From Candidatus Omnitrophota bacterium (lineage in GTDB: Bacteria > Omnitrophota > Gorgyraeia > Aquiviventales > Aquiviventaceae), in the NCBI GenBank assembly GCA_016180575.1, contig JACPAY010000002.1, positions 27,235 through 91,234 of the forward strand: DNA of 64,000 nucleotides. Reading direction: 5' to 3'. The notes beneath the pieces are model-generated. The model worked only from the letters and a program-made list of their open reading frames with translations. It had not been told where the DNA came from and ran no database searches. This document shows, piece by piece, positions 1,866 through 32,669 of the stretch; position 1 is the first letter of the stretch, and each line of letters starts with the position of its first letter. The translations under genes and the position numbers were made by a program.

Positions 1866-3086
1866 ATGACCCGCTCCATACCGTGGGCACCTCGCATCCA
1901 ATACGCGGCGGTGGTGGCGTTCGCCGCGGTCCTCCCGCTCGGGCAGGCGCCAGCCGAGATCACCCTGGTGATCGGCCTGGCGGCCTGGGTGTTCCGCGCC
2001 GTGCGGGAACGGCGCGGGTCCCAGCTGCTGAGGAATCCCCTCAGCGGGCTCCTGGTCCTCTGGTTCCTGGCGGCACTCGTCTCCATGCTGAACTCCGTTG
2101 ATCCGGCGGCGAGCCTGCACGGCCTGCGCAAGCTCCTGAAGGGGTTCGGCCTCTACTTCCTCGTCGTCGACACGGTCGGCTCCCGGGATGCCCTCCGCGG
2201 CGTCGTTGCCGGATCGCTGGCGGGCCTCAGTCTCGTCGTGGGAGACGGCCTGTGGCAGTGGGCCGCTGGCCGCGATCTCATCTACGGCCACGTCCCGGTC
2301 AACGAGTTGCCGACCGGCAAGACCATCCTGCGGTTGTCGGCGATGTTCGGCCACTCGGCGAGCCTGGCGATGTACCTGGTCAGTTGGGCTCCCCTGGCGA
2401 TCGCGGCCGGGCTGGCCGGGGGGCGGCGATGGCGGCGTTGGCTGTTCGGTCTGGGCGCGCTGGCCGCCGTGGTCCTCGTGTTCAGCCGGACCCGCGGGGG
2501 GATCCTTGGGTTTGCGTGCGCGCTCCCGCTCATGAGCTGGTGGCTGCGCAGCTGGATTCCCGCGGCGGTGGGGGTGGCGGCCGCGGCGCTGCAGGTCGCC
2601 ACGGTGCCGCCGGCGGTGGCCGAGTGGGCGGCGGCGATGCCGACGCTGCTGCATCAATTCACGGAGCCGGAGCGGCTCATGTATTGGCAGGCGGCGCTGC
2701 GGATGGTGCAGGCCCATCCGCTCATCGGCGTCGGGGTCAACACGTTCGTCAAGGCATATCCCTCCTATCGCGTCGCGGGCGACCCGTATGCGGCCCTGGG
2801 CCCCTATGCGCATAACCAGTACCTGCAGGTGGCGGCCGAGCTGGGGCTGGTCGGCCTTGCCGTATTCGCGGGGGTCCTGGTCCGGCTCGGTCTTGCGCTG
2901 CGCCGGGGCCTCGCCGCGCGGTCCGGGCACCCGTTCGAAGCGGCCGTCGCCGCGGGCGTGGGGGCGGGGCTCGTGGGCTACCTGATCCTCGGGGGCCTTG
3001 AGTCCTCGCTCTTCTACGGGCGGGGCTCGCTCATCTTCTGGACGCTGGCAGGACTGTTGGTTGCGGTCGAGCGGCGATACAAATGA
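1866..3086 (+). CDS. O-antigen ligase / Wzy family membrane protein
   Basis: 406 aa, multi-TM, with the motif GVGVNTFVKAYPSY...YAHNQYLQVAAELGLVGLAVF. Its stop TGA lies inside the family-A repeat. Confidence 0.75.
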   Translation: MTRSIPWAPRIQYAAVVAFAAVLPLGQAPAEITLVIGLAAWVFRAVRERRGSQLLRNPLSGLLVLWFLAALVSMLNSVDPAASLHGLRKLLKGFGLYFLVVDTVGSRDALRGVVAGSLAGLSLVVGDGLWQWAAGRDLIYGHVPVNELPTGKTILRLSAMFGHSASLAMYLVSWAPLAIAAGLAGGRRWRRWLFGLGALAAVVLVFSRTRGGILGFACALPLMSWWLRSWIPAAVGVAAAALQVATVPPAVAEWAAAMPTLLHQFTEPERLMYWQAALRMVQAHPLIGVGVNTFVKAYPSYRVAGDPYAALGPYAHNQYLQVAAELGLVGLAVFAGVLVRLGLALRRGLAARSGHPFEAAVAAGVGAGLVGYLILGGLESSLFYGRGSLIFWTLAGLLVAVERRYK

Positions 3087-3152
3087 GGAGTCCGGTTCCC
3101 GCTTTCCCATCGGAGAACTCCAGGAAACCGGGAACCGGACCCGGGACTATCG
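3080..3152 (+). repeat. Family-A palindromic element, copy 1 (caaATGAGGAGTCCGGTTCCC...GGGAACCGGACCCGGGAC)
   Basis: Four copies in the window: 3080, 6765 (short), 19270 and 31410. A nested inverted repeat is present, and copies 1 and 3 differ by a compensatory CCCG/CGGG versus CCCT/AGGG change. Confidence 0.8.
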
Positions 3153-4156
3153 GGGACTGTCCGCGTCTCCTGTTCATTCGGACTGATCGGCTCGGCGAAA
3201 CGCTCCTCGCCCTGCCGGCGGCGCTGGCGCTGCGCGCCGCGTCCCCCGGGGCGCACCTGACGCTGCTCGTGCAGCCTGGGCTCCAGCCGCTTCTGGCCGG
3301 CGTGCCGGGGATCGACGAGGTGCTGGCCTATGACGAGACCGCCCCGCCCCAATGGTGGCGGCGGGCGCTGCGCCTGGGGCGCGCGCTGCGGCCCAGGCGG
3401 TTTGACGCGGCGGTCATCGCCAACCCGAAGAAGGAGCTGCACCTGGCGGTGTGGCTGGCCGGCATCCCGGTGCGGGCGGGCTACGGCCGGAAGTGGGGCG
3501 GCCTGTTGACCCACCGGGTGCCGGACCGCAAAGCGCTTGGCGAGCGTCACGAAGTCGAGTATAATCTGAGGCTGGTCGAGGCGGTCCTCGGGCCGCTCGC
3601 CCCGGCGTCGGCTCCGACGGTGCGGCTGCCGCTCCGCGAGGAGGCGAAGGGCCGCGTCCTGCAGCGGCTGGCCCGCCACGGCGTGCAGGGGACCGACCCG
3701 TTCCTCGCGGTCCATCCGTGGACCTCGAACCCCGTCAAGCGATGGGCGTCCGCCCGCTACGGGGAGCTGGTCCGCGCGATGGCGCAGCGCCTTCCCGTCG
3801 TGGTCATCGGCGGCCCTGAAGCCGTGGGCTGGGCCCCAGACGTTGCTCCCGCCGGTCAGCCTCGCGTCGTGAACCTCGTGGGAGGCCTGTCGTTGAGCGA
3901 GCTGGCCGAGCTCCTGCGCGCTGCCCGGCTGCTGGTGTCGAACGACAGCGGGCCCGTCCATCTCGCGGCGGCGGTGGGGACGCCGACGGTGGTGCTCTTC
4001 GGCGGCTCGTCCCCGGCGGCCGGCCCGCGCCGCTGGGGACCCTGGGGGGATGGCCACACGGTGATCTGGAAAGGCTCGATGGAGGAGATCACGGTCGATG
4101 AAGTCGTCGCGGCGGCCCGCGACGTCCTGGACGCTCGCGATCCCCGCGCAGGATGA
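3083..4156 (+). CDS. ADP-heptose:LPS heptosyltransferase (GT9)
   Basis: Motifs LLFIRTDRLGETLL and NDSGPVHLAAAVGTPTVVLFG. No ATG, GTG or TTG lies between the repeat and the conserved N-terminus, so the ATG inside the family-A repeat (overlapping the upstream TGA) is the likely start. The alternative is a rare ATC or CTG near 3149-3170. Confidence 0.75.
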   Translation: MRSPVPAFPSENSRKPGTGPGTIGDCPRLLFIRTDRLGETLLALPAALALRAASPGAHLTLLVQPGLQPLLAGVPGIDEVLAYDETAPPQWWRRALRLGRALRPRRFDAAVIANPKKELHLAVWLAGIPVRAGYGRKWGGLLTHRVPDRKALGERHEVEYNLRLVEAVLGPLAPASAPTVRLPLREEAKGRVLQRLARHGVQGTDPFLAVHPWTSNPVKRWASARYGELVRAMAQRLPVVVIGGPEAVGWAPDVAPAGQPRVVNLVGGLSLSELAELLRAARLLVSNDSGPVHLAAAVGTPTVVLFGGSSPAAGPRRWGPWGDGHTVIWKGSMEEITVDEVVAAARDVLDARDPRAG

Positions 4157-5673: not shown

Positions 5674-6771
5674 ATGAGCCCGGTGCCGTTCCTTGAGGTG
5701 GCGCCGTCCCCCGCGCTCCAGGGGGAGCTGGAGGCGGCGGTGCGCGGGGTCCTCGCGGGCGGGCAGTACATCCTCGGGGAGCGGGTGCGCGCGTTCGAAG
5801 AGGCGCTGGCCGCCCGGTGCGGCTGCCGCTTCGGCGTGGGCGTGAACTCGGGCACCGACGCGCTGGAGCTTGCCCTGCGCGCCTGCGGGATCGGGCCGGG
5901 CGATGAGGTGATCGTGCCCGCGTTCACCTTCATGGCCACCGCGCTCGCGGTGACCTGCGCCGGGGCGACGCCGGTCCTGGCGGATATCGACGAGGCGTCC
6001 TATGGCATCGACGTGGAGGACGCCGCCCGCCGCGTGAGCGCCAAGACGAAAGCCATCATCCCCGTCCACCTCTACGGCCAGCCCTGCGACCTGGACGGGG
6101 TGCTGCGCCTCGCGGAGCGCCGGCGCCTGTGCGTCATCGAGGACTGCGCGCAGGCGATCGGCGCCGCCTACCGCGGACGAGCGGTGGGCGGCTTCGGCGC
6201 GGCCGGGTGCTTCAGCTTCTACCCGACGAAGAACCTGGGCGCGGCCGGAGACGGCGGGGCGGTCGTCACCAACGACCCCGCGATCGCCGAGCGGCTGTCG
6301 CTGCTACGCCAATGCGGCACGCGCGACAAGGTGCGCTATGAGATGGTCGGGCGCAACAGCCGGCTGGACGAGCTGCAGGCGGCCATCCTCCTCGTCAAGC
6401 TCAAGTATCTGGACGGCTGGAATGAGGCCCGGCGGGCGCGGGCGGGGTGGTACCGCGCGGCATTCGAGCAGGAGCGGGTGGAGGGGGTCGGCCTGCCCCA
6501 GGAGCTCGCGGAGCGGCGCCACGTCTACAACGTGTTCACCGTGCGCGTGAGCGAGCGGGACCAGGTGCGGGCAGAGCTGGCGTCGGGGGGCATCGAGACC
6601 ATGGTGTACTATGCGCGCCCGCTGCACCTGGATTCGTTCTACGAGGGCGGCGCGGCCAAGCGGGGAGACCTGCCGCGGGCCGAGCAGGCCGCCCGCGAGG
6701 CGCTGGCGCTGCCGATGTATCCCGGGCTCAGCCGGGAAGCGATCGCGGCGGTCGTGCGCGCCTTCAAATGA
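5674..6771 (+). CDS. DegT/DnrJ/EryC1/StrS family sugar aminotransferase (PLP-dependent)
   Basis: 365 aa with motifs GQYILGERVRAFEE, FYPTKNLGAAGDGGAV and YGQP. Its stop TGA lies inside the short family-A copy. Confidence 0.85.
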   Translation: MSPVPFLEVAPSPALQGELEAAVRGVLAGGQYILGERVRAFEEALAARCGCRFGVGVNSGTDALELALRACGIGPGDEVIVPAFTFMATALAVTCAGATPVLADIDEASYGIDVEDAARRVSAKTKAIIPVHLYGQPCDLDGVLRLAERRRLCVIEDCAQAIGAAYRGRAVGGFGAAGCFSFYPTKNLGAAGDGGAVVTNDPAIAERLSLLRQCGTRDKVRYEMVGRNSRLDELQAAILLVKLKYLDGWNEARRARAGWYRAAFEQERVEGVGLPQELAERRHVYNVFTVRVSERDQVRAELASGGIETMVYYARPLHLDSFYEGGAAKRGDLPRAEQAAREALALPMYPGLSREAIAAVVRAFK

Positions 6772-6800
6772 GGAGTCCGGGAACCGGACCCGGGACAATC
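6765..6800 (+). repeat. Family-A element, truncated copy 2
   Basis: caaatgaggagtccgggaaccggacccgggacaat. The internal part of the full element is deleted, leaving the short hairpin GTCCGG-gaa-CCGGAC. Confidence 0.7.
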
Positions 6801-7151
6801 GTCCTTTCACTCGTCGAGCGCGGCTGGCAGGCGGCGCGGGAGTATTCGCTGGACGTGCAGCGGGAGGGCGGAGGCGTGGTCCATCTCGTGAAGGGGGCTC
6901 TCTCGCCGGCGGTCCACGCCATGATCGCCCCCCAGCCGCGCGTCCGCGTCGTGAGCGTCCGGCGCGCGCTGTTCTGGCCCCTCGCGTGGGCGTGGTGCGC
7001 CGGATTGCTCGCGGCGGCCAGGCTGCGCGGGGTGCTCGTGGACAACGAGCGGTCGCTGCGGCGCGTGCGGCGCTGGGTCGGCGGCCCGCGCGTGCGCCTC
7101 GTCCGGGTTGGGCCCGGAGGGCGGGGCTACGAGCTCGCCGGTGGCTCATGA
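6768..7151 (+). CDS. Hypothetical protein (127 aa) that initiates on the repeat ATG
   Basis: It starts at the ATG of the family-A copy, which overlaps the DegT stop as ATGA. It ends in an ATGA overlap with the next gene. No recognisable domain. Confidence 0.35.
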   Translation: MRSPGTGPGTIVLSLVERGWQAAREYSLDVQREGGGVVHLVKGALSPAVHAMIAPQPRVRVVSVRRALFWPLAWAWCAGLLAAARLRGVLVDNERSLRRVRRWVGGPRVRLVRVGPGGRGYELAGGS

Positions 7152-8032: not shown

Positions 8033-9141
8033 GGGTCCTCGTCACCGGCGGCGCCGGGTTCATCGGCTCCCATCTCGTGGACGCCCTCGTGCGCGACGGC
8101 CACGCCGTCCGCGTCCTGGACAGCTTCGACCCGCAGGTGCATGGCGGACGAGCCCCGGACTACCTGAACCCGGCAGCCGAGTACGTGGAGGGCGATGTCC
8201 GGGACCGCGACGCGCTGCGCCGCTCGCTCCGGGATATTGAGGTGGTGTTCCACGAGGCGGCGGTCGTCGGCGTCGGCCAGTCCATGTACGAGATCGAGCG
8301 GTACGTCTCGGTCAACGTCCTGGGCACGGCCACCCTCCTCGACGTCATCGTCAATGACCGCCTTCCGCTGAAGAAGCTCGTGGTGGCGAGCTCGATGAGC
8401 ATCTACGGGGAAGGGCAGTACGCCTGCCCGTCCTGCGGGCCGGTGACGCCGCCGCTCCGCCCCCTCGAGCAGCTCAAGGCGCGCGAGTGGGAGATGCGCT
8501 GCCCGCGCTGCAGCCGTCCGGCGCGCCCCCAGCCGACCGCGGAGGCCAAGACGCTTTCCCCCACGTCGGTCTACGCGGTGTCCAAGCGGGACCAGGAGGA
8601 GCTGTGCCTGTGCGTGGGCCGCAGCTACGGCATCCCGACGACGGCGCTGCGCTACTTCAACGTCTACGGGCCCCGCCAGGCGCTGTCGAACCCCTATACC
8701 GGCGTCTGCGCCATCTTCTCGGCGCGGATCAAGAACCGGCACCGCCCCCTCCTGTTCGAGGACGGCGGGCAGACCAGGGATTTCATCGCCGTCCAGGATA
8801 TCGTCCAGGCGAACCTGCTGGTGATGCGGGATGCCCGCGCCGACTTTGAGGTGCTGAACGTGGGCACAGGGCACCCGGTGTCGATCGCCCAGATCGGCCG
8901 GCTGCTCGCCCAGCTCTACGGGGTGCCGGTCGAGCCGGAGCTCACCCGCAAGTACCGCGCCGGCGACATCCGCCATTGTTATGCGGACATTTCCAAGCTG
9001 CAGGCGCTGGACTTTCGCCCGTCCGTCTCGCTGGAGGAGGGGCTGCGCGCGCTGGCGGCGTGGGGCCGTGGGGTGGAGGCGGAGGACCGGGTGGAGAAGG
9101 CGGCGAAGGAGCTGGAATCGCGCGGCCTCACCCGAGGGTGA
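8029..9141 (+). CDS. NAD-dependent epimerase/dehydratase (GalE-like) with an inserted Cys4 zinc ribbon
   Basis: Motifs GGAGFIGSHL and YAVSK...YFNVYGPRQ. An approximately 33-aa insertion CPSCG...CPRCS lies at nt 8424..8525. Confidence 0.85.
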   Translation: MRVLVTGGAGFIGSHLVDALVRDGHAVRVLDSFDPQVHGGRAPDYLNPAAEYVEGDVRDRDALRRSLRDIEVVFHEAAVVGVGQSMYEIERYVSVNVLGTATLLDVIVNDRLPLKKLVVASSMSIYGEGQYACPSCGPVTPPLRPLEQLKAREWEMRCPRCSRPARPQPTAEAKTLSPTSVYAVSKRDQEELCLCVGRSYGIPTTALRYFNVYGPRQALSNPYTGVCAIFSARIKNRHRPLLFEDGGQTRDFIAVQDIVQANLLVMRDARADFEVLNVGTGHPVSIAQIGRLLAQLYGVPVEPELTRKYRAGDIRHCYADISKLQALDFRPSVSLEEGLRALAAWGRGVEAEDRVEKAAKELESRGLTRG

Positions 9142-9147
9142 CCGTCC

Positions 9148-10263
9148 ATGCCAGTCTGCGATCTAGTCTTGATCAGTTGGAATCATCTCGAGCAGACGCG
9201 GCCGTGCCTGGAGACGCTCTTCCGGTCGACCCGGACGCCGTGCCGCCTCTTCATCGTGGACAACGGCAGCACACCTGCGGTGCGCGCGTTCCTCGCCGGG
9301 GTGAAGCCGCAGGGCGAGATCCGGGAGGTCGTGCTGCTGCAGAACGACTCCAATGAGGGGTTCCCCCGCGCCGTGAACCGCGGCATCCGCGCCTCCTCGG
9401 CGCCGTTCGTCTGCCTCCTCAACAACGACCTGCGGTTCGCCGCGGGGTGGCTGGAGGAGATGCTCGAGGTGGCGCGCGCCGGCCCCTCGATCGGCGCGGT
9501 CAACCCGACCAGCAACACGTTCGGCAATGTCCCTCCGGACGGCCTGCCGCTCGACGCCTACGCCGACCGCCTCCGGGCGCGTCACGGCCGGTACACGGAA
9601 GTCGGGATGTGCATCGGGTTCTGCATCCTGACGAAGCGGGAGGTGCTGGATCGGCTGGGGGGGCTCTCCGAGGAGGTCGAGCGGATCTTCTTCGAGGACG
9701 AGGATTTCTCCATCAGGGTCCAGCAGGCCGGGTTTCGGTGCGTCGTGGCGCATGCGGCGTACGTCTTTCACGCGGAGCATCAGACGGTGAAGAAGATGCC
9801 GGAGCGCGAGGCGCTCTTCGTGAGGAACCAGCGGTGGTGCCACGCGAAGTGGGGCCGGTGGGTCCGCATGGCCTGGCCGCGCTTCACGCCGCTCACCCCG
9901 GGCTCGGAGGAGCTGCGCCGGTGGCTGGAGGAGCTGCTGGGCTGGGCCAGGCGCCGGACCCACGTCTACGTCTACTGCCCCCTGCCGCCCCGGATGACGC
10001 GGGACGCGCTGTTCGGCTCCGTCGGCCTCGTCCCGCACGCGGACATCCGGTGGCATCCGGTGGCCGCCGGCTGGGCCCGCTGGGCGGCCGCCGGGCGCAT
10101 CCTGCGGCGGCGGAAGAAGCGGTTCGATATCATCGTGGCGCCGGACGAGCGGTGGCGGCGGGCGCTTGAGCGCCTGGCGTGGGTGCACCGCGCGCAGGTG
10201 GTCCCCGCCGCGCACGCCGAGGAACTGGAGGCGCAATGGGAACGGTCCCGCTCTCGGTTGTGA
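9148..10263 (+). CDS. GT2 glycosyltransferase
   Basis: Motifs LFIVDNGST and LLNNDLRFAAGWLEEM. Length 371 aa. Confidence 0.8.
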   Translation: MPVCDLVLISWNHLEQTRPCLETLFRSTRTPCRLFIVDNGSTPAVRAFLAGVKPQGEIREVVLLQNDSNEGFPRAVNRGIRASSAPFVCLLNNDLRFAAGWLEEMLEVARAGPSIGAVNPTSNTFGNVPPDGLPLDAYADRLRARHGRYTEVGMCIGFCILTKREVLDRLGGLSEEVERIFFEDEDFSIRVQQAGFRCVVAHAAYVFHAEHQTVKKMPEREALFVRNQRWCHAKWGRWVRMAWPRFTPLTPGSEELRRWLEELLGWARRRTHVYVYCPLPPRMTRDALFGSVGLVPHADIRWHPVAAGWARWAAAGRILRRRKKRFDIIVAPDERWRRALERLAWVHRAQVVPAAHAEELEAQWERSRSRL

Positions 10264-11762
10264 TCATCGCCAGGAACGAAGCTGGGCGGCTCCGCGACTG
10301 CATCGAGAGCGCGCGGTGGGCGGGAGAGGTCCTCGTCGTGGACGACCGCAGCACCGACGACACCGCGCGCCTCGCGGAGTCGCTCGGGGCGCGCGTCCTT
10401 GCGCGCGCAATGGACATCGAGGGCCGCCATCGGAACTGGGCCCACGCGCAGGCCCGGCATGACTGGATCCTGAGCCTCGACGCGGATGAGCGGGTGACGC
10501 CGGAGCTGGCCGAGGAGATCCGCGGGCTCTTCGCCGCCGGCCCGCGGTTTGAGCTGTACGCGATCCCGCGCCGGAACTTCATCGGGGGCCGGTGGATCCG
10601 CTACGGGGGCTGGTATCCGAGCGCGCAGATCAAGCTGTTCAAGCGCACGGCGCTGCGCTGGGAGGAGACGACGGTGCACCCCCGGGCGATCTCCGACAAG
10701 CCGGGGGGGACGCTGACGCACGACCTCATCCACCTCTCCTATCGCGACCTGGCGGATTTCCTCGACAAGCTGAACCGCCAGACGACGCTGGAGGCCGAGA
10801 AGTGGCGGCTCGACGGCCGCCGGGTGACGCTGGGCAAGGCGCTGTGGCGCACGGCGGACCGCGCCCTCCGGAGCTATGTCGGGAAGCAGGGCTGGCGCGA
10901 CGGGTTCTGGGGCCTCGTGACGGCGGTCCTGGCCGGCCTGTACCAGTTTGTGGCGTGGGCGAAATACACGGAGCAGCGGCGGGCGCTGGCGGTCGAGGCG
11001 GTCGTGGCGCCGTTCGGGTCGCTGGTCGTCGACCAGGAGCGGTATGATCGCCAGCTGCTCATGTCGCACCTGTGCGCCTATCGGATCGCGGCGCACGTGG
11101 GCCGGCGGAAGCGGATGCTGGAGATCGGCTGCGGGGCGGGCTACGGGGCGTTCTACCTGGCGCATCACGCCCGGGAGGTGACGGCCATCGATGTGCAGCA
11201 GCCGAAGCTCGAGCAGGCCGCGCGGCTCTTCCGCCGCGACAACGTGCGGTTCCTGCCGGCGCAGGGGAGCCGCTTGGCCTTCCCCGACGCGAGCTTCGAG
11301 TGCGTGGGGACCTTCCAGGTCATCGAGCACATCCCGGAGCCGGAGCTTGAGACGTTCGTCCGGGAGATGGCGCGCGTCCTCACCCCCGACGGCGTCCTCG
11401 TCGTCTCGACGCTGAACCTGGACCACAACTGCAAGGACCCGGCGACCTACGTGAAGCCGTCGTTTCACGAAAAGGAGTTCAGGCCGGAGGAGCTCCGGGC
11501 GCTGCTGCAGCGCGCCTTCCCGGCCGTGGAGCTCTTCGGGCTGTACCCGGGCCGGCGCTACCGGATCTACCGGCGGCTCAAGAAATGGGGCCTGGACAAG
11601 TGGGGCCCGGCGCGGTGGAACCCGGTCCGGCGGTTCCTCCAGACGCTCGACACCGACGCGCATGAGCTCCGGCCGCAGCTGGACGCGAGCGCGGTGGACC
11701 TCATCGCGATCTGCCGGAAACAGGCGGCTCCGCTTGACGGGTTGCCGCTGCTGCGCCGGTGA
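10236..11762 (+). CDS. Bifunctional GT2 (WaaE/KdtX-like) fused to a class-I SAM methyltransferase
   Basis: The N-terminus LSVVIIARNEAGRL...VVDDRSTDDT is a GT2 domain. The C-terminus MLEIGCGAGYGAF...VIEHIPEPE is a methyltransferase fold. Start taken at the internal ATG MGTVPLSVV. Confidence 0.7.
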   Translation: MGTVPLSVVIIARNEAGRLRDCIESARWAGEVLVVDDRSTDDTARLAESLGARVLARAMDIEGRHRNWAHAQARHDWILSLDADERVTPELAEEIRGLFAAGPRFELYAIPRRNFIGGRWIRYGGWYPSAQIKLFKRTALRWEETTVHPRAISDKPGGTLTHDLIHLSYRDLADFLDKLNRQTTLEAEKWRLDGRRVTLGKALWRTADRALRSYVGKQGWRDGFWGLVTAVLAGLYQFVAWAKYTEQRRALAVEAVVAPFGSLVVDQERYDRQLLMSHLCAYRIAAHVGRRKRMLEIGCGAGYGAFYLAHHAREVTAIDVQQPKLEQAARLFRRDNVRFLPAQGSRLAFPDASFECVGTFQVIEHIPEPELETFVREMARVLTPDGVLVVSTLNLDHNCKDPATYVKPSFHEKEFRPEELRALLQRAFPAVELFGLYPGRRYRIYRRLKKWGLDKWGPARWNPVRRFLQTLDTDAHELRPQLDASAVDLIAICRKQAAPLDGLPLLRR

Positions 11763-12996
11763 GCAGCCGCCGCTGAGACAACAGGCACCAGGCGAGTGAC
11801 AGCCCGAGGAGGGGGAGGATCATCAGGACTTCGAAGACGTACGTCTCCCCCTTGATGGCCAAGACGCCGAAGAAACGCCACACCTTGGCGTGCGTCAGGG
11901 TGCTGAAGATCGCGAGCGCCGCCGCCCCGAAGAGCAGCGAAGGGCGGCGCAGCGTGGCGCGGGGCGTTGCCGCGAGCAGCGCGAGCGCCACGAAGGCGGG
12001 CCAGAGCAGGGCGCTGTACGTTGCGACCCAGCAGGTGGGGGAGCTGAGCACCATGAGCACGGCCAGCAGCGCGCCATCAAAGACGGCCCGCGCAGGTCCG
12101 GGCGTCGGGCGCGCACGGGGGAGGCACACCGCGGCGAACAGCGCTGCCGCGAGCACGGCGGTGACCGCGGCGACCGCGCCGTCGGAGAGCGCCAGCACGT
12201 TGAAGCCATAGCCGTCCGCGCGCAGCAGCCGCCCCATGAGGGCGAGGAGCGACTGGCTGCCGATTTCAAACGCGCGGTCTGGTCCGCTGGCCGCAAGCGT
12301 CTGCCACCAGGACCCGAGCAGGGTGAGCGGGCCGGCAGGCGCGAGCGCCCAGGCGGCGGCCAGATTGAGGACGAGGAACAGCAGGGCGGCCCGTCCGGCC
12401 GAGGCAAAGCGGCGGCGCACGAGGAGGTACGCGAACACGATGAGCGCCGGCAGCTTGAGCGAGACGGCCAGCGCCAGCGACAGGGCGGCGGGCCAGGGGC
12501 GCCCGCTCGTTTCGCCGAGCAGGAAGGCGAGGACGAGCAGCCCCCAGAGGATGTTGACCTGCCCGTTGAGCAGCTCGGCGGTCAGCGGACGCACGAGGAG
12601 CAGGACGGCGGCTGCCGCAGCGAGCGGATGGACGCGGATGCCATGGCGTCGGCAGAGCCGCGCGGACAGCGCGAGGGTCGCGAGCAGCAGCGCCACGCCG
12701 ACCGCGGTCCAGAGGATGGCGCCGGCGCGCGGCGTGAGCCAGCCGAGCGGCGCCCAGGCGAGCGCCCAGAGGGGCGCGTACTTGAACAGCGCGGTCGCGG
12801 AGAGCGTTGGGTCGTACAGGGCGGCCCCCCCGCCGTCCAGGACGCGCTCCGCCACCGCGCGGTAGACCTCGAAGGTCATGAGGTACGGTTGCGTGAGGGC
12901 AAAGTGGATCGGGAAGCGAATGAGGAACACCGCGCCGAGCAGGGTCAGGCAGGCGCGCTCGAGAATGCGGGGACGTTGCGCGAGCAAATTCCACAT
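11701..12996 (-). CDS. DUF2029 / GT87-like polytopic membrane glycosyltransferase (GT-C type)
   Basis: 431 aa with more than 10 predicted TM helices. Its architecture matches polyprenol-phosphate-dependent mannosyl/arabinosyl transferases. It converges on the upstream gene by about 60 nt. Confidence 0.55.
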   Translation of the reverse strand: MWNLLAQRPRILERACLTLLGAVFLIRFPIHFALTQPYLMTFEVYRAVAERVLDGGGAALYDPTLSATALFKYAPLWALAWAPLGWLTPRAGAILWTAVGVALLLATLALSARLCRRHGIRVHPLAAAAAVLLLVRPLTAELLNGQVNILWGLLVLAFLLGETSGRPWPAALSLALAVSLKLPALIVFAYLLVRRRFASAGRAALLFLVLNLAAAWALAPAGPLTLLGSWWQTLAASGPDRAFEIGSQSLLALMGRLLRADGYGFNVLALSDGAVAAVTAVLAAALFAAVCLPRARPTPGPARAVFDGALLAVLMVLSSPTCWVATYSALLWPAFVALALLAATPRATLRRPSLLFGAAALAIFSTLTHAKVWRFFGVLAIKGETYVFEVLMILPLLGLSLAWCLLSQRRLLTGAAAATRQAEPPVSGRSR

Positions 12997-13035
12997 GGCA
13001 AGCGGCGTTCATTCTAACACACTGGGGGACGCGGC

Positions 13036-15699
13036 ATGAAACCGCCCGTGTTCATCGTCGGATCGGGCGGGTCCGGCACCACCCTCCTTCGGTTGATGCT
13101 GAACGCGCACCCCCACCTCGCGATCCCGCCGGAATCGAACTTCGTCCCGGAGGTGTGGAAGGCGTTCGAGCGCGCGCAGCCCTGCAGCCCGGACACGCGC
13201 CGGGAAATTCTGCGCTTTCTGGAGGGGTTTCCCGGCTACCATGACTTCCAGCTCGACCGCGCCCGCGTCGAGGCCCGGCTGGATGCGCTCTCCCGGCCCA
13301 TGCTGTCGGACGTGCTCGACGCCATCTACCGCGAATACGCCGAGCGGCACGGCAAGTCGCGGTGGGGCGACAAGACGCCCGGCTACGTCGAGCAGCTCAG
13401 GCGGCTCAACGCGCTCTTTCCGAACTGCCTGGTCATCCACCTGATCCGCGACGGCCGGGATGCGGCGCTCTCCATGCTCGCCCGGGGCGTCGGGCCCCGC
13501 ACCCTCTACGAGGCGGCCAGGGAATGGGTGGGGCGCGTCCGGCGGGGGCGTCGCGACGGCGCGCAGGTGCTGGGGAGCGCCCGCTACCTGGAGGTCTATT
13601 ACGAGCGGCTCGTCGCCGAGCCCCGGGAAACGCTGCAGCGCGTCTGCGCGTTCGTCGGCGAGCCTATGGATGAGGTGCTGCTGGCCTTCTACCGCGACGC
13701 GAGCCGGCACATCCCTGAGGCGGAGCGGCAGAAGCACGCGGCGACGACCCGCCCGGTGACGACCGAGCGGGTGGGGCGGTGGGAGCGGGACATGCGCCTG
13801 CTGGACGTACTGATCGTGCAGGCGGTTGCAGGGTCGCTGCTCGCGGAGCACGGCTACGCGCTGAAGCGCTCGCCGCTGGCCGCGCCGGTCAGCGCCGCGG
13901 TCTGGTGCCGCCTGGCGGCCGAGCGGTTGCTGCGAACGCCCAAAAAGCTCTACAATAGCGTCGCCAAACGGCTCACCAAAAAAAGGGGTCAGACCCCTTT
14001 TGCCGAAAAGGGGTCTGACCCCTCTGAGCGCCAGGCGCTGTCGGTGGTCATCATCGCGCGCAACGAGGAGCGGCGGATCGGCCGGTGCCTTTCGAGCGTG
14101 CAGTGGGCGGATGAGATCATCGTCGTGGACGGGATGAGCGAGGACCGGACGGCCGAGATCTGCCGGCAGATGGGGGCGCGGGTCGTGTCGCACCCCTTTG
14201 AGGGGAGCTTTGCAAAGGAGCGAAATCTCGGGATGGAGCACGCCCGGGGTGAGTGGGTGCTGCAGCTTGACGCCGACGACGTGGTCACGCCGGCGTTCCG
14301 GGAGGCGGTGGCGCGGATGCTGAAAACGCCCCAGCCCCACGAGGCGTTCAAGTTCAGGCGGAAGAGTTTCCTGATGGGGCGATTCATGCGCCACGGCGGC
14401 TGGTACCATGAGCTGCCGAACCTCGTGCGGCGGACGGTCCGCTACGAAGGGCTGGTCCATGAGCGTCCGGTGATCCGAGGCACCATCGGCCGGCTGGACG
14501 CCGACGTGGAACACCATCCTTGCGACGACCTGACATCGTTCCTGGACCGGCACAACCGCTACACGACGCTCAGCGCCCAGGAGCTGGCCGGCCGGGGCGA
14601 GCGGCTGACCGAGGCCCAATGGCGCGCGCGCCTCGTCCGGAAGCCGTGGAAGACGTTCTGGAAGACCTGCGTCAAGAAACAGGGGTTCCGGGAGGGGATG
14701 CACGGCCTGGTGTTCTCGCTCTTCTTTGCCGGTGTGGAGCTCATCAAGTGGGCGAAGGTCTGGGAGCGCTCACTGCGCGCCCCCGGCATGCCGCCGGGGG
14801 ACGAGCCGATGGCCGTCCGCGCCGCGCCGCCGGGCGCCGCCCCGTCGAGGGCAGCCCACCGTGAGACGCTGTCGGTCGTCCTCATGACGAAGAACGAGGA
14901 GGCGCGCCTTTCGGCCTGCCTCGACCAGGTCGTCGGATGGGCGGATGAGATCGTCGTCATCGATGACCTGAGCACCGACCGGACCGTGGAGATCGCCCGG
15001 CGCTATACCGACAAGGTCTTCGCCTTCGCCTTGGAGGACAACCACGACCGGCAGTGGAACCGGGGGATCGAGCGCGCCACCGGCGAATGGGTCCTCCACA
15101 TCGATGCGGACGAGGTGGTGACGCCCGCGCTCCGGGAGGCGATTGACCGGCGGCTCGCGGGGGCGGAGGGCTACGGCGCATTTGAGCTGATGCGGAAAAA
15201 CTTCTTTCTGGGCCGCCCGATGCGCGACGGCGGCTGGTACCACCGGCACCTCGTCCTGTTCCGCCGCCGGCTGTCGCGGTGCGTGGGGCAGGGGATCCAC
15301 GTGCGGCTGCAGGTGGACGGCCGCATCGGGTTCCTGGATGCCGAGATCGAGCACTACCCCTTCAGCTCCCTCGCGCAGTTCGTCGAGCGGCAGAACCACT
15401 ACACCGGCGTCGAGGCCCGCGTCCTCTTGGCGGAGCGCGGCGCGCCGAGCCTGCGGGTCCTCCGCTACCAGCTGACGGTGCGGCCGGTGAAGCTGTTCTG
15501 GAAGAGCTACATCAAGCATCGGGGCCGCCGCGAGGGGGTGCACGGGCTCGTGTTCGCGCTCCTCTACGCGTTCGCCCACGTGATGCTGTGGGCCAAGGTC
15601 TGGCAGCTGAGCCTGTCGGAGGCGCCGCCCGCCTCCGCGGCGGCTGCGCAGCCGAACCAGGAGCCTGAGCTGACGCCATGGCACGCCAGTCCGACGTGA
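13036..15699 (+). CDS. Sulfotransferase domain followed by two tandem WaaE/KdtX-like GT2 domains in one stop-free frame (fusion or unseparated genes)
   Basis: The N-terminus VFIVGSGGSGTTLL is a PAPS-binding P-loop sulfotransferase. LSVVIIARNEERRIG starts at about 14040 and LSVVLMTKNEEARLS at about 14870. An AT-rich hairpin element lies in-frame at the first junction. Confidence 0.55.
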   Translation: MKPPVFIVGSGGSGTTLLRLMLNAHPHLAIPPESNFVPEVWKAFERAQPCSPDTRREILRFLEGFPGYHDFQLDRARVEARLDALSRPMLSDVLDAIYREYAERHGKSRWGDKTPGYVEQLRRLNALFPNCLVIHLIRDGRDAALSMLARGVGPRTLYEAAREWVGRVRRGRRDGAQVLGSARYLEVYYERLVAEPRETLQRVCAFVGEPMDEVLLAFYRDASRHIPEAERQKHAATTRPVTTERVGRWERDMRLLDVLIVQAVAGSLLAEHGYALKRSPLAAPVSAAVWCRLAAERLLRTPKKLYNSVAKRLTKKRGQTPFAEKGSDPSERQALSVVIIARNEERRIGRCLSSVQWADEIIVVDGMSEDRTAEICRQMGARVVSHPFEGSFAKERNLGMEHARGEWVLQLDADDVVTPAFREAVARMLKTPQPHEAFKFRRKSFLMGRFMRHGGWYHELPNLVRRTVRYEGLVHERPVIRGTIGRLDADVEHHPCDDLTSFLDRHNRYTTLSAQELAGRGERLTEAQWRARLVRKPWKTFWKTCVKKQGFREGMHGLVFSLFFAGVELIKWAKVWERSLRAPGMPPGDEPMAVRAAPPGAAPSRAAHRETLSVVLMTKNEEARLSACLDQVVGWADEIVVIDDLSTDRTVEIARRYTDKVFAFALEDNHDRQWNRGIERATGEWVLHIDADEVVTPALREAIDRRLAGAEGYGAFELMRKNFFLGRPMRDGGWYHRHLVLFRRRLSRCVGQGIHVRLQVDGRIGFLDAEIEHYPFSSLAQFVERQNHYTGVEARVLLAERGAPSLRVLRYQLTVRPVKLFWKSYIKHRGRREGVHGLVFALLYAFAHVMLWAKVWQLSLSEAPPASAAAAQPNQEPELTPWHASPT
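13978..14026. repeat. Perfect 17-bp-stem hairpin (AAAAGGGGTCAGACCCCTTTT gccg AAAAGGGGTCTGACCCC) embedded in-frame
   Basis: It has family-C-like architecture around a TCAGA/TCTGA core. The local AT-rich, Lys-rich codons are atypical for this genome. TGA occurs in both alternative frames but not in the coding frame. Confidence 0.6.
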
Positions 15700-16070
15700 T
15701 CATCCAGCCGCGGGAGCCGTTCATCGACGCCCGCGGCCGGATCCTGAACCTGATCGATGCGCCGTTTACCAGCGCCGCCGTCGTGACCTCGGTCAAGGGC
15801 GCAGTCCGCGGCAACCACTACCACAAGACCGACTACCATTATTGCTGGCTGCAGCGCGGCGGGCTCATCTACCTGCACCGGCCTGCCGGCGCCGCGACGC
15901 CCCCGGAGCGATGGGTCATCGCGCCGGGGCAGCTCTTCTACACGCCGCCGGGCTATGAGCACGCGATGCGCTTCACGGAGGATTCCGTGATGGTGGTCCT
16001 GGCCCGCAACAACCGCGAGATGGCCAACTACGAGGCGGACACCGTGCGCACCCCGCCCCTCGGTCCATGA
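15678..16070 (+). CDS. FdtA/WxcM-like cupin (NDP-sugar 3,4-ketoisomerase family)
   Basis: 130 aa with the His-rich cupin motif VRGNHYHKTDYHYCW. It overlaps the neighbouring genes by a few nt. Confidence 0.65.
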   Translation: MARQSDVIIQPREPFIDARGRILNLIDAPFTSAAVVTSVKGAVRGNHYHKTDYHYCWLQRGGLIYLHRPAGAATPPERWVIAPGQLFYTPPGYEHAMRFTEDSVMVVLARNNREMANYEADTVRTPPLGP

Positions 16071-18456: not shown

Positions 18457-19554
18457 ATGCCTGAGCCGGTCCGTTTGGGCCTGATCGGCGCCGGGCGGTG
18501 GGGGCGCGTCCACCTCCGGACCCTCCTCTCGCTCGGGGACCGCGTCCGGCTCACGCACCTGTGCACCACCAAGCCGGCTGCGGCCGACCTCTTGCCGTAC
18601 CCGGTGAGCGTCGTGCCCGACTGGCGGCAGCTCCTCCGGGCGCCGTGCGATGCGCTGATCATCGCGACGCCTCCCGCGTACCATCCCGAGATGCTCGAGG
18701 CCTGCCTGGACGCCGCCAAACCGTGCCTGGTGGAGAAGCCGCTGTGCCTCGACGTCGCCACTGCCGAGCGGCTCCACGAGCGCATCCGGGCCTCAGGCGT
18801 CCCGGTGCTGGTCAACCACACCCACCTCTTCGCGCCGGCGTATCGCGCCCTGAAGCGGGCGGTGGCGGAGGGCGGGGAGCCGATCCGGATCCTCCTCTCG
18901 GAGGGGATGGGCTTCGGCCCGTTCCGGACCCACACCCCCACCCTCTGGGATTGGGGTCCGCATGACGTGAGCCTCTGCCTCGACCTCCTGGGGGAATCCC
19001 CGCGCGGCGTGGAGGCGCTGGGCGGCCCGCGCAGCCCGGACGGCGACCCGGAGCTGGTCAGCCTGCGCCTCGAGTTTCCGGGGGGCGCCTGCGCCTGGAT
19101 CCAGACGGGGCGGCTCGCCGCCAAGAAGCGGCGGAGCCTGGCGGTCATCACCAACAGCCGGCTCTATCTCCTCGACGACCTGGCGGCCGAGCCGCTGACG
19201 GTCGCTCCCATCCAGTTCTCAGAACGGTACACCGATGGCGTGCCGGAGCCGCCGGCCCCTGTGCCGCTACAAATGAGGAGTCCGGTTCCCTCTTTCCCTT
19301 CGGAACACTCGGGGAAACAGGGAACCGGACCCGGGACTGGCATGGCGACGATGGCCCATGTCCTGACCTATTTCCTGGACGGGCTGGCCGGAGGCGACCG
19401 CAGCCAGTTCGGGACCGGGCTTGCGCTGGAGGTGACCCGCGTGCTGGCCGCCTGCGAGCGGGCGCGCATCTCCCGGTATCAGATACCGGTTGAAGGAAGC
19501 CGCTCTTTCAGGCCGGTATCTGATACCGGAGAGGGACATGGCGCCGTTCCGTGA
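18457..19554 (+). CDS. Gfo/Idh/MocA-family oxidoreductase carrying an in-frame family-A element
   Basis: N-terminus RLGLIGAGRWGRVHL, and DALIIATPPAYH. The C-terminal third contains the repeat translated as QMRSPVPSFPSEHSGKQGTGPGT. Confidence 0.7.
   Translation: MPEPVRLGLIGAGRWGRVHLRTLLSLGDRVRLTHLCTTKPAAADLLPYPVSVVPDWRQLLRAPCDALIIATPPAYHPEMLEACLDAAKPCLVEKPLCLDVATAERLHERIRASGVPVLVNHTHLFAPAYRALKRAVAEGGEPIRILLSEGMGFGPFRTHTPTLWDWGPHDVSLCLDLLGESPRGVEALGGPRSPDGDPELVSLRLEFPGGACAWIQTGRLAAKKRRSLAVITNSRLYLLDDLAAEPLTVAPIQFSERYTDGVPEPPAPVPLQMRSPVPSFPSEHSGKQGTGPGTGMATMAHVLTYFLDGLAGGDRSQFGTGLALEVTRVLAACERARISRYQIPVEGSRSFRPVSDTGEGHGAVP
19270..19340 (+). repeat. Family-A element copy 3 (inside a CDS, in-frame)
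   Basis: caaatgaggagtccggttccctctttcccttcggaacactcggggaaacagggaaccggacccgggactgg. Confidence 0.8.
19473..19528. repeat. Family-C REPIN-like element (CCGGTATCAGATACCGG ... CCGGTATCTGATACCGG)
   Basis: Two self-palindromic 17-mers in inverted orientation separated by a 22-nt spacer. It overlaps the 3' end of the oxidoreductase and the 5' region of the methyltransferase. Confidence 0.8.
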
Positions 19555-23785: not shown

Positions 23786-25986
23786 TGGATCCATCGAAAT
23801 CCCGTGTGGCCGCGGGTGACGCGGAGCCGGGGACCCCGTCGCCTGCCCGCAGGCCGAGGCCGAGGACAGCCGACGGGGTGGCGGCGCGGCAGGACCCGCG
23901 GCCGACGATTGCTGAGGTCGCCTTCAATCTGCCGCTCGACAAGTCGTTCCACTACCTCATCCCGGAGGCGATGCGCCAGACGCTCGCGCCCGGGATGCGG
24001 GTGGCGGCCCCGTTCGGCCCTCGCGAGCGCATCGGCTTCGTCCTCAAGGTTGTGGCCGAGAGCCCCGTGAAGGAGCTGAAGGAGATCCGCCGCGTCCTGG
24101 ACCCGCGGCCGGTGATCGGCGAGGAGCAGTGGGCGCTGGCGTCGTGGCTGTCCACCTACTACTGCTGCAGCATGGGCGAGGCGCTGGCCACGATGGTGCC
24201 TGGCGGCCTGCGCCTCCGAGCGGGGGCGGGTCCTGCCGCCTCGGGCACTCCGCCTGCCGTCCTCGTCCCTGACGGGACTGCGGCCGGCGGCGGAGGCCTC
24301 CCCTCGGCGTCACCCGTCCCCACGGGTGTTGTGATGTTGACCGCGCATCAGCGGCAGGCGCTGCCGCCCATCCTCGAGGCGCTGGAGGCGAAACGCTTCG
24401 CCTCCATCCTCCTCTTCGGGGTCACCGGGTCAGGGAAGACCGAGCTCTACCTGCAGGCGATCGACCGCGCGCTGCGCCAGGGACGCTCCGCCATCTGCCT
24501 CATCCCGGAGATCGCGCTCACGCCGCAGACGACCGACCGCTTCGTCGAGCGCTTCGGCGGCGGCGTCGCGGTCTGGCACAGCCGCATGAGCGCACGAGCT
24601 CGCTCGCGCGACTGGATGCGGATGAGCGACGGGGCGTGCCGGATCGTGGTCGGGGCCCGCTCGGCGGTCTTCGCCCCGGTGCAGCGCCTGGGGCTCATCA
24701 TCATCGATGAAGAGCACGAGCCGACCTACAAGCAGGAGGATGCCCCGCGCTACCACGCCCGCGAGGTCGCCATGGCCCGCGCGCGGCTCGCCGGCGCCGC
24801 CGTCGTGCTGGGGAGCGCCACGCCGTCCGTGGAGAGCTACTATGCCGCCGCGCGGCGGGCGGGGGGTGTCGTGACGCTGCCGGAGCGGATCGCGGGACGG
24901 GGGCTGCCGGCGGCGGAGGTCATCGACATGCGGGAGGAGATGAGCAGCCGCCGCCGCTTCGGCCCTCTCTCAGCCCGCCTGGAGCGGGCGCTCGCGCAGA
25001 CCGTGGAGCGCGGGGAGCAGGCCATGCTCCTGCTCAACCGGCGCGGGTTCGCGCGGGTGGCGCAGTGCAAAACGTGCGGGGCGGTCGAGCGGTGCGCGCG
25101 CTGCTCCGTCCCGCTCGTCTACCACGCCGGCCGCCGGGAGCTGGTCTGCCACTATTGCAACTTCCATGAGCCGCCGCGGGAGCTCTGCCGCCAGTGCCGG
25201 AAGGGCTACCTGAGCTTTCGGGGGAGCGGGACGGAGCGGGTCGAGTCCGAGCTGCACCGGCTCTTTCCCGTGGCGTCCATCGCCCGGATGGACCGGGACA
25301 CCACCGCGCGCCGCGGCAGCCACCGCGAGCTCTACGAGGCGGTCAAGACGCGCCAGGTGAACCTCCTCGTCGGCACGCAGATGATCGCCAAGGGGTTCGA
25401 TTTCCCGCAGGTGACGCTCGTCGGCGTGGTGTCGGCGGACACGGCGCTCAACCTGCCGGATTTCCGGGCCGGCGAGCGGACGTTCGACCTCCTGACGCAG
25501 ATGGCGGGACGGGCGGGGCGGGGGGAGCGGCCGGGGCGGGTGCTGATCCAGACTTTCTGCCCGGGCCACTACGCGATCCAGGCCGCCAAGGCGCACGACT
25601 ACCTGGGATTCTACGCGCAGGAGATCCGGATGCGGCGAGCGCTGCGGCTGCCGCCCTTCGTGCACCTCATCGAGCTGACGGTGCTCGGCTCCTCGCTGCC
25701 GCGCGTGGAGGAGGCGGCGCAGTGGCTCGCGGGCCGCCTGCGGCGGGCGCTCGCCCGCCGCCTGCCTGCCGCGCCGGGGAAAGGCGCGACTCGCGCGGCG
25801 CAGGCAGGCGCCGTCCTGCTCGGGCCGGCGCCGCACCGCATCCCGCGGCTGCGCCGGGCCTACCGGGTGCACCTCCTCCTCAAGGCCCGGTCGGTCGAGG
25901 CGGTGACGCCGATCGTGCGCCGGGTCCTCGCGCCGGGGCGGAAGGCGAAGGGCCTCCCCGTGATCGTCAACGTCGACCCACTGTGA
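23782..25986 (+). CDS. priA: Primosomal protein N' (PriA helicase)
   Basis: Contains the 3' DNA-binding domain NLPLDKSFHYLIP, Walker A GVTGSGKT, Cys-rich zinc motifs (CKTCG, CARC, CHYC, CRQC) and a C-terminal region. Its ATG overlaps the UDG stop as ATGATG, which implies an N-terminal extension of about 38 aa read through the family-B repeat. Confidence 0.85.
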   Translation: MMDPSKSRVAAGDAEPGTPSPARRPRPRTADGVAARQDPRPTIAEVAFNLPLDKSFHYLIPEAMRQTLAPGMRVAAPFGPRERIGFVLKVVAESPVKELKEIRRVLDPRPVIGEEQWALASWLSTYYCCSMGEALATMVPGGLRLRAGAGPAASGTPPAVLVPDGTAAGGGGLPSASPVPTGVVMLTAHQRQALPPILEALEAKRFASILLFGVTGSGKTELYLQAIDRALRQGRSAICLIPEIALTPQTTDRFVERFGGGVAVWHSRMSARARSRDWMRMSDGACRIVVGARSAVFAPVQRLGLIIIDEEHEPTYKQEDAPRYHAREVAMARARLAGAAVVLGSATPSVESYYAAARRAGGVVTLPERIAGRGLPAAEVIDMREEMSSRRRFGPLSARLERALAQTVERGEQAMLLLNRRGFARVAQCKTCGAVERCARCSVPLVYHAGRRELVCHYCNFHEPPRELCRQCRKGYLSFRGSGTERVESELHRLFPVASIARMDRDTTARRGSHRELYEAVKTRQVNLLVGTQMIAKGFDFPQVTLVGVVSADTALNLPDFRAGERTFDLLTQMAGRAGRGERPGRVLIQTFCPGHYAIQAAKAHDYLGFYAQEIRMRRALRLPPFVHLIELTVLGSSLPRVEEAAQWLAGRLRRALARRLPAAPGKGATRAAQAGAVLLGPAPHRIPRLRRAYRVHLLLKARSVEAVTPIVRRVLAPGRKAKGLPVIVNVDPL
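23806..23905 (+). repeat. Family-B palindromic element copy 1 (about 100 nt, ends GGCCGCGGGT...ACCCGCGGCC)
   Basis: Four copies: 23806, 35505, 49537 and 56788 (inverted). The internal pairing is CCCCGTCG/CGACGGGG. A conserved left-flank TCGAA motif precedes every copy. Confidence 0.8.

Positions 25987-30330: not shown

Positions 30331-32661
<2,331 letters not shown>

Positions 32662-32669
<8 letters not shown>

Follow-up and report, generated by a model that had tools for sequence, protein, structure and literature searches.

A mobile palindromic repeat on stop/start junctions of Omnitrophota operons is a candidate translational relay

Introduction

How does a gene begin translation when a short repeat lies on its junction with the preceding gene and no canonical start codon is left between that repeat and the conserved N-terminus of its protein? 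The question is raised by a 64-kb stretch of DNA (the window, meaning the whole stretch analysed here), which is part of a 103,869-bp contig from a metagenome-assembled genome (MAG) of Candidatus Omnitrophota (locus tags HYT90_, proteins MBI21041xx). The window carries four copies of a palindromic repeat, ~75 nt long in its full form and referred to below as the element, and a preliminary description of the sequence had proposed that these are portable stop/start cassettes from which the downstream proteins acquire a conserved N-terminal peptide. Here, we compare the element with its relatives in other assemblies. The comparison shows that the element is a mobile palindromic repeat, most likely a selfish one, and that it is probably built as a translational relay placed on stop/start junctions.

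Results

A palindromic repeat recurs on stop/start junctions

The sequence ATGAGGAGTCCGG occurs exactly four times in the window, always on the + strand, with its ATG at positions 3083, 6768, 19273 and 31413, so that the common start ascribed to the four copies stands. A profile built from the copies retrieved the three long ones with nhmmer E-values of 8e-25, 5e-24 and 2e-23; the resemblance is not due to chance. These three full-length copies follow the scheme (W)WCAAATGAGGAGTCCGGTTCCC[G/T]CTTTCCC..loop..GGAAAC[C/A]GGGAACCGGACCCGGGACTATCG, with the ends CAAATGAGGAGTCCGG...CCGGACCCGGGACTATCG. At the 5′ end, (W)WCAAATGA supplies both a TGA for the upstream gene and an overlapping ATG, from which a stop-free frame of 22 codons (10 in a short form) extends to a conserved ATC. 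The encoded peptide, MRSPVPxFPS..K.GTGPGTI, is rich in P, G, S and T.

Three of the copies sit on junctions between genes of the + strand. Copy 1 (3078..3152) is of full length and joins a Wzy_C (O-antigen ligase-like) gene (1866..3086), which stops after YK on the element's TGA (3084-3086), to a GT9 heptosyltransferase gene (3083..4156), whose only available starts are the overlapping ATG (3083-3085; 357 aa, as annotated by NCBI in MBI2104134.1) and the ATC at 3149. Between the two lie GAGGAG (3085-3090), the 5′ and 3′ stem arms (3090-3101 and 3129-3140) and, finally, the ATC itself (3149-3151). Copy 2 (6763..6801; ATG 6768, TGA 6769-6771, ATC 6798-6800) is the short form, in which the 39-nt hairpin interior has been deleted between two CCGG microhomologies with the frame kept; it ends a DegT/DnrJ aminotransferase gene (5674..6771) after FK and begins a 127-aa hypothetical gene (6768..7151), which shows a clear coding signal in its GC content at third codon positions (GC3) and which NCBI likewise starts at the element ATG (MBI2104137.1). 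Copy 4 (31408..31482; ATG 31413, TGA 31414-31416, ATC 31479-31481) provides the stop of gap (GAPDH; 30370..31416), again after FK, and opens the frame of pgk (31413..32669), which comprises 418 aa from the element ATG and 396 aa (MAKQTV) in the NCBI annotation from ATC 31479 (MBI2104160.1). At all three junctions the upstream gene thus terminates on the element, and the ATG frame runs stop-free into the GT9 heptosyltransferase, the 127-aa open reading frame (ORF) and pgk, as first described. Direct reading of the sequence also bears out the claim that motivated our question, as there is no in-frame ATG, GTG or TTG between the element and the conserved N-terminus of either the heptosyltransferase (RLLFIRTDRLGETLL) or pgk.

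Copy 3 (19268..19341, + strand) departs from this pattern. It forms an in-frame 23-codon insertion within an ORF of 365 aa for a Gfo/Idh/MocA oxidoreductase (18457..19554; MBI2104147.1), its TGA is out of frame and translation would read through it; its 3′ end is ACTGGC, followed by ATG 19342. In contrast to the other three, this copy is not located at a gene junction, which corrects the preliminary description.

The surroundings of these junctions have a marked style of their own. GC content of the window is 70.4%, and at 27 of the 53 + strand ORF ends the stop codon shares a 4-nt [A/G/T]TGA overlap with the following start, which makes this the dominant junction type and agrees with the earlier view of ATGA as the genome's native coupling arrangement. 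Another four junctions are TGATG overlaps, and the + strand carries 42 of the 46 long ORFs. This strong strand bias and the pervasive 4-nt overlaps together point to very long, co-oriented and translationally coupled gene arrays. GGAGG is too frequent in 70%-GC coding sequence for the window-wide spacing of Shine-Dalgarno motifs to ATG to discriminate.

The preliminary description had called for a search for further copies. The DNA that was read comprised the 64 kb of the window genome, ~100 kb of the sister MAG Ca. Omnitrophota nzgw327 (GCA_023247155.1) and metagenome contigs. An orientation-specific scan with an exact two-arm pattern, which by design misses stem variants (L002b, L014), gave eight matches among the GTDB species representatives, all in nzgw327 (L001-L008), and two copies, forming the orthologous pair L009/L010, on JGI metagenome contigs. 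The nhmmer profile added the stem-variant copy L002b, and protein look-ups led to two oxidoreductase orthologues with a variant copy at the site of copy 3 (L014 in nzgw327 and L015 in ERZ27276474). The loci number 15 in all, 11 of them beyond the four of the window (nhmmer E down to 1e-25). The host range of the element is restricted to a narrow clade of Omnitrophota with 70% GC.

In nine sense copies the upstream gene stops on the element's TGA. Besides the three in the window (Wzy to GT9, DegT to the hypothetical gene, gap to pgk), these are the copies that precede era (L001), a gene for a secreted T2SS-B-like protein (L002a), an aldo/keto reductase gene (L003), rpmG in the pair tuf-rpmG (L004), a DUF1015 gene (L005) and a gene for a SpoIID-like secreted protein (L007). 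In two more (L006 and L008) the upstream stop lies 3-7 nt before the ATG. The remaining contexts are intragenic (window 19273 and its orthologue L014, inside the oxidoreductase gene), antisense in the interval from the rpmE stop to the prfA ATG (L009/L010) or antisense and non-genic, past the last gene of an operon (L002b). Hence 11 of 14 independent loci are sense stop/start junctions and one further junction locus is antisense; counted by orientation alone, 12 loci are sense and two antisense (binomial p ~0.007), a bias that fits the survival of insertions competent to act as relays.

The residues that precede the element's TGA vary (YK, FK, NK, NT, YE, IK, HT), so that the [Y/F]K noted at first is a trait of the window (YK, FK, FK) and not a rule among the relatives (NK, NT, YE, IK, HT, FK). 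CAAATGA, in turn, occurs five times on the + strand of the window, and four of these occurrences are element copies, as compared to a chance expectation of ~1.2 for both strands together. This excess argues that the heptamer travels with the element and is not a target in the host. We therefore rejected insertion after a host CAAATG as the main model; its attraction was that deleting 69 nt from the window restores a perfect gap-TGA/ATG-pgk overlap and the N-terminus MKQTV.

Filled and empty orthologous sites indicate mobility

The element is mobile, as filled and empty orthologous sites, compared at 85-89% nucleotide identity, run in both directions between the window genome and nzgw327. Locus L008 is syntenic with window positions 8322-16049 (84-91% nucleotide identity) and carries the element at a GT2 glycosyltransferase junction (L008 7102-7182, minus strand), whereas the window has just TGA-ccgtcc-ATG between the epimerase and GT2 genes (9139..9150, + strand). 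The reverse is seen at gap-pgk, where the window is filled and both nzgw327 (L016) and ERZ27280021 (L017) are empty: there, the gap TGA overlaps a GTG start (GCC TCG TGA AAC AAA) and Pgk begins with MKQTV. The same junction is also empty in GCA_964561685.1 (L012), with an ATGA overlap, and on these sequences the 4-nt overlap is ancestral at gap-pgk. Portability is thereby borne out, and the orthologues that lack the element have native starts at the empty sites, namely ATG for GT2 and GTG for pgk.

The oxidoreductase site is filled in three assemblies (the window genome, nzgw327 and ERZ27276474), in each of which the frame is kept (69 or 93 nt), and the 23 residues of copy 3 are missing from oxidoreductase homologues of 43-58% identity. 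Its retention in two further assemblies shows that in-frame translation of the element is tolerated. L014 (1864-1961) and L015 (1394-1491) are composites of a complete stem-variant unit (ATGAGGAGACCGCTTCCC...GGGAAGCGGTCCCGGGACTATCGCA) and the last 21 nt of a TCCGG-type unit, 93 nt long and in frame, a structure suggestive either of a new insertion at a resident copy or of recombination with one. Together with the filled and empty sites, it shows that gains and/or losses as well as restructuring took place after the window species and nzgw327 split.

No consistent direct repeat flanks the 15 copies, and the two filled/empty junctions are too diverged for target-site duplications to be delimited there. 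Near one of them, the tail of GAPDH past ...KKGLG varies among close relatives, with 348 aa in the window and 339 aa in nzgw327 (31370-31416 versus L016 ~3960-4004), i.e. nine residues more in the window, and GAPDH of GCA_964561685.1 has a 16-residue tail past ...KRGL (L012 ~125-187). Because the tail varies, one cannot place the limit of the insertion upstream of TTCAAATGA to the nucleotide.

Where translation of the downstream gene would begin

In each of the two filled/empty pairs, the filled allele has lost its native start codon: the GT2 ATG of the window reads ACG in L008, and the pgk GTG of nzgw327 reads GCA in the window. The start must therefore lie inside the element, in agreement with what had been proposed for the heptosyltransferase and pgk. 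Within the element, the 5′ ATG is the initiator that we favour, with fair though limited confidence.

This preference draws on the 11 copies that precede a gene. Eight of them carry the 3′ ATC, and in these the 5′ ATG is always in frame and followed by stop-free sequence (66 nt; 27 nt in the short form); seven of the eight lack any canonical start before the conserved sequence, the other being L002a, which has a GTG directly after the ATC. The 5′ frame is closed in the remaining three (L003, L004 and L005; 56/57 long, with a 1- or 2-nt loop indel), and each of these has an ATG of its own, located 4 nt beyond the ATC position in L003, 9 nt beyond it in L004 and at the ATC position itself in L005. 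The association between frame and own ATG is significant by Fisher's test (p = 1/165 = 0.006, or 0.024 if the GTG of L002a is counted as a start). Moreover, the ATC is kept before pgk, era and six other genes though a single C-to-G change would make it ATG, and the sole copy with ATG at that position, L005, is the one whose 5′ frame holds a stop. This pattern suggests that the ATC is probably an ordinary isoleucine codon.

Two secreted proteins provide a further hint. Signal peptides have a charged n-region, and in the proteins encoded after L002a and L007 the stretch ahead of the hydrophobic core contains K or R only if the extension is counted, an observation that favours the extension but is only suggestive. 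Public annotation is inconsistent on this point, as NCBI places the starts of MBI2104134.1 (3083) and MBI2104137.1 (6768) at the element ATG and that of pgk (MBI2104160.1) at ATC 31479. At the protein level, the two starts would differ in their products, with SPVPSFPSEHSR as a predicted tryptic peptide of the element-encoded extension and fMet/Met-AKQTVR expected without it.

Alternatively, the ATC (in L005, the ATG) at the element's 3′ end may be the initiator, via a split ribosome-binding site in which the hairpin brings GAGGAG to within ~8-9 nt of the start codon; the N-termini of the proteins would then be almost native, with no role left for the 5′ ATG and its open frame. Much in the layout of the element speaks for such a site. 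GAGGAG is invariant in 15 of 15 copies and lies directly against the stem, a 9-nt spacer (CCCGGGACT) runs from the stem to the ATC or ATG, and the pgk gene of a relative (L011) has GAGGAG, 8 nt and then GTG. The position of the ATC matches that of the orthologous methionine to within 0-2 codons (MKQTV versus I-AKQTV in Pgk, MPVCDL versus I-ETSVCDL in GT2), NCBI annotates pgk from it, and in L005, with its 5′ frame closed, the ATG at this position must be used and the DUF1015 profile matches from residue 4, so that initiation here is possible within the element. Bridging of a Shine-Dalgarno sequence by a hairpin has precedent in phage T4 genes 38 and 25 (PMC3014915). We nevertheless consider initiation on the ATC unlikely. 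AUC is a weak start, reaching 0.02-3% of AUG in E. coli (bioRxiv 10.1101/063800), yet it persists before pgk, era and six other genes, and the contrast between the open 5′ frame of ATC copies and the own ATG of frame-broken ones would go unexplained. In the predicted minimum free energy (MFE) fold three of the six GAGGAG bases lie inside the helix, the hairpin to be bridged measures 50-55 nt as compared to 22-27-nt spacers from Shine-Dalgarno to AUG in the T4 cases, and the n-regions of the two signal peptides would be uncharged. A more far-reaching form, in which the element is a mobile split ribosome-binding site, housekeeping genes (pgk, era, glycosyltransferases) routinely initiate on AUC from selfish DNA and the relay ORF of the 5′ AUG only opens or regulates the structure, appears rather unlikely as well.

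The proximity of the ATC to the orthologous methionine, the pgk annotation, the case of L005 and the geometry of GAGGAG and ATC on either side of the hairpin all weigh against initiation at the 5′ ATG, and other points join them. The 11-copy sample is small and many of its members resemble each other closely, so that their shared length may partly reflect recency instead of selection. Diverged flanks do not allow the insertion boundaries to be fixed to the nucleotide. That a 22-aa N-terminal tail is harmless to Pgk, Era and other proteins is an assumption, and the hosts are uncultured.

With initiation at the 5′ ATG, the element could work as follows. At the end of the upstream gene, a ribosome positioned on AAAUGA would have the foot of the hairpin in its mRNA channel, already melted; it would re-initiate on the overlapping AUG and would then unwind the hairpin by translating it, and the downstream protein would be made with a P/G/S/T-rich N-terminal extension. 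Free 30S subunits would be blocked from loading at the element AUG by the hairpin, which starts 5-8 nt downstream of it, and downstream expression would thereby be tied to translation of the upstream gene. In the frame-broken copies (L003, L004 and L005), the ORF of the element would serve as a brief relay that terminates close to an independent ATG: it closes with a TAG 2 nt before the ATG in L003 and downstream of the rpmG ATG in L004. A relay ORF also spans the antisense copy L010, with an ATG that overlaps the rpmE stop (AAATGA) and a TGA that abuts the prfA ATG. The element would reproduce the native 4-nt overlap of the genome, and a design of this kind would allow insertions at operon junctions to survive. 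Both re-initiation and RNA unfolding are established models of translational coupling (PMC12548453); for the element, we infer re-initiation at the 5′ AUG, coupling enforced by the hairpin and retention of the extension in the mature proteins.

A conserved hairpin within the translated frame

Each long window copy is predicted to fold into a hairpin with a 12-bp lower and a 5-bp upper stem (about -30 to -45 kcal/mol; MFE -34 to -45 kcal/mol in 96-nt contexts), with the stem foot GAGTCCGG.../...CCGGACCC. In the alignment of all 15 copies the 20 proposed pairs are paired in 97.7% of instances, the pairs of the 12-bp stem are never broken and ATGAGGAG is invariant. Both sides have changed at three pairs (UA/AU, GC/CG and UA/GC). 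The covariation reported at the outset, CCCG/CGGG versus CCCT/AGGG, is thereby upheld, and the relatives contribute two further compensatory pairs. Such conservation of the stem may owe as much to the requirements of transposition as to a function of the RNA.

A scan for intrinsic terminators found none at the element, whose stem is followed by CCCGGGACTATCG with no U-tract. At the Rfam gathering threshold the element remained unmatched, the sole match of the window being a tRNA, and a permissive scan of positions 3050-3180 returned just generic resemblances to miRNA-precursor hairpins (13-20 bits versus gathering scores of 35-99).

The strength of this hairpin raises the question whether its role is structural or regulatory in the manner of REP elements, i.e. 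whether it protects against 3′ exonucleases, is processed by RNase III/E, sets differential expression within operons or serves as a transposition substrate. The stop, the ATG and the open frame would then be what purifying selection against harmful insertions has left, and each downstream gene would use whatever start it has. The very stable fold with its unbroken 12-bp stem and three compensatory pair changes would suit this, as would the copies without a possible start function (L002b, antisense past the end of an operon, and the antisense pair L009/L010), and effects of REP and Correia elements on the stability and processing of mRNA are known (PMC2229807). However, such a role leaves unexplained how pgk, era, GT9 and GT2 are translated after loss of their native starts, and why copies show the association of frame and ATG as well as the 12:2 sense bias; and, with no U-tract, the hairpin is not an intrinsic terminator. 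As the whole explanation, we regard this as quite unlikely. A hairpin role of this type is compatible with the relay that we favour and adds to it rather than replacing it.

If selection acted on the protein instead, the extension might be a conserved N-terminal targeting or sorting peptide and the DNA palindrome incidental. Its sequence is kept across unrelated proteins, and basic residues precede a hydrophobic, signal-like segment in two of them. However, it is the nucleotide sequence that is conserved, the stop codon of the upstream gene included, compensatory changes keep base pairs and alter residues (SPVP/GTGP to RPLP/GSGP), and the carriers include the cytosolic proteins Pgk and Era. 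Internal copies exist, and the antisense and non-coding copies, together with the empty orthologous sites, whose proteins lack the peptide, effectively refute this very improbable reading. More improbable still is that the element serves as a recoding signal, with ribosomal bypass or a frameshift joining the upstream protein to the downstream one. The combination of a stop, a stable hairpin and a Shine-Dalgarno-like motif superficially resembles the bypass element of T4 gene 60, but the flanking pairs encode complete, unrelated proteins (among them Wzy/GT9, DegT/hypothetical, gap/pgk and tuf/rpmG), take-off and landing codons that match were not seen, and the empty sites have ordinary separate genes.

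Other palindromic repeats

A second palindromic family of ~95 nt (GGCCGCGGGTGACGCGGAGCC...GGCAGGACCCGCGGCC) occupies window positions 23805-23905 (+), 35505-35605 (+), 49537-49637 (+) and 56785-56885 (-), as well as L008 3839-3928. A single reading frame stays open throughout the four window copies. The one at 23812 separates ATG 23782 from the conserved N-terminus of a PriA-like protein (IAEVAFNLPL), to which it would add ~40 residues, and that at 35511 is found shortly before the ATG of a permease-like gene. This family may behave like the junction element.

The 13-bp palindrome GGTATC[A/T]GATACC is matched six times in the window, as compared to 0.01 expected. It occurs in pairs, two per site and 10-30 nt apart, at 19475-19527, 47080-47116, 60385-60421 and ~38910-38965; the pairs end 10-15 nt upstream of ATGs at ~19540, 47124, 60432 and 38975. 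The arrangement looks like a putative repeated operator pair for one regulator. At its 3′ end, the oxidoreductase ORF with copy 3 overlaps the first of these sites. In locus L002, a 12-bp palindrome, GGTAGCGCTACC, is present twice at ~905-945 with the spacer TTATTTAT, in AT-rich non-coding sequence immediately upstream of L002b.

Discussion

Set against known repeats, the element finds its closest analogues in the mycobacterial MIRUs and the Rickettsia RPEs, and on its sequence features it belongs to neither of these, nor to any named family. What is distinctive is a single strong hairpin combined with a stop/start overlap and a fused ORF that replaces the native starts of housekeeping genes.

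MIRUs, in the account of Supply et al. (1997) relayed in PMC12548453, are seemingly mobile short repeats at the start codons and intercistronic junctions of operons, with an internal ORF coupled at -4 nt, a coupling thought to allow insertion with minimal effect on expression. The element shares with them its place on intercistronic junctions and start codons, a co-oriented ORF and the 4-nt overlap, and L003, L004, L005 and antisense L010 would act as relay ORFs in the style of MIRUs. In contrast, MIRUs are 46-101-bp direct tandem repeats (variable-number tandem repeats, VNTRs) of mycobacteria and have no hairpin, whereas the element is single, palindromic and found in Omnitrophota; L014, with its full unit and 21-nt remnant, is not a tandem array. 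In MIRUs the ORF forms a mini-cistron of its own, with its stop on the next gene's start, and that of the element is fused to the downstream gene in eight copies. A test for MIRU-type ORFs returned the 5′ ATGA overlap in nine copies and a separate stop near the downstream ATG only in L003 and L010.

RPEs are palindromic mobile repeats of ~100-150 bp in Rickettsia that have a stop-free frame, lie mostly within genes and in frame, and contribute a peptide segment to the host protein, according to the work of Ogata et al. (2000) as cited in PMC10969869 and PMC2229807; peptide insertion in frame is a trait of other ORF-bearing bacterial MITEs too. Copy 3 is likewise palindromic, in frame and inside a conserved gene whose ORF stays intact, and the N-terminal fusions are similar in effect. 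As far as these descriptions go, RPEs have neither a stop/start overlap nor a systematic placement on junctions, and the element, at ~75 nt and with another GC content and host, is set apart from them by description.

Other small, non-autonomous hairpin repeats, such as ERIC, YPAL, the 107-bp Correia elements and REP/REPIN, are co-transcribed with genes, some of them fused to ORFs, and YPAL supplies part of a signal peptide (PMC2229807, PMC3733652). Filled and empty sites between close relatives are common to such MITE- and REP-like repeats and the element, which differs from them in its fixed stop/start position and strong sense bias. By the definition in PMC3733652, a REP is an extragenic palindrome of 20-40 nt that has a conserved GTAG or CGTC head and often comes in inverted pairs; the element is not a REP/REPIN, as there is no GTAG/CGTC at the stem foot and the copies are single and within translated sequence. 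Nor does it have the build of a classical MITE: the inverted repeat is subterminal, and the ends CAAATGAGGA... and ...CCCGGGACTATCG are not complementary. Asymmetric ends, a subterminal hairpin and no target-site duplication seen are consistent with IS200/IS605-derived palindromic elements (PATEs), which insert 3′ of a fixed target of 4-5 nt and have a Y1 TnpA partner. In nearly all copies the ATG follows WWCAA, a sequence that, by the counts for CAAATGA, travels with the element; L014 has the look of a second insertion at one point.

Hairpin-dependent coupling, for its part, is known from phages, as in f1 genes VII/IX and the MS2 coat/lysis pair, where a structure near the downstream start yields only to ribosomes that translate the cistron before it (PMC12548453). 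These cases and those of T4 genes 38 and 25 are unique, fixed features of single loci, whereas the element is a dispersed and portable repeat.

As we read it, the element shows how selfish DNA colonises a genome in which about half of the junctions are 4-nt overlaps. By bringing its own stop, its own start and a stop-free frame through the hairpin-coding sequence, an insertion would rebuild the junction that it interrupts. With the native starts of core genes (pgk, GT2) gone, a mobile element would now supply initiation for central metabolism. For annotation, this poses a problem, as comparisons of orthologues will show spurious 22-aa differences at the N-terminus. In design, the element would be a natural, compact coupling adaptor comparable to engineered bicistronic constructs, and it extends the idea behind MIRUs and RPEs to a candidate phylum known only from metagenomes.

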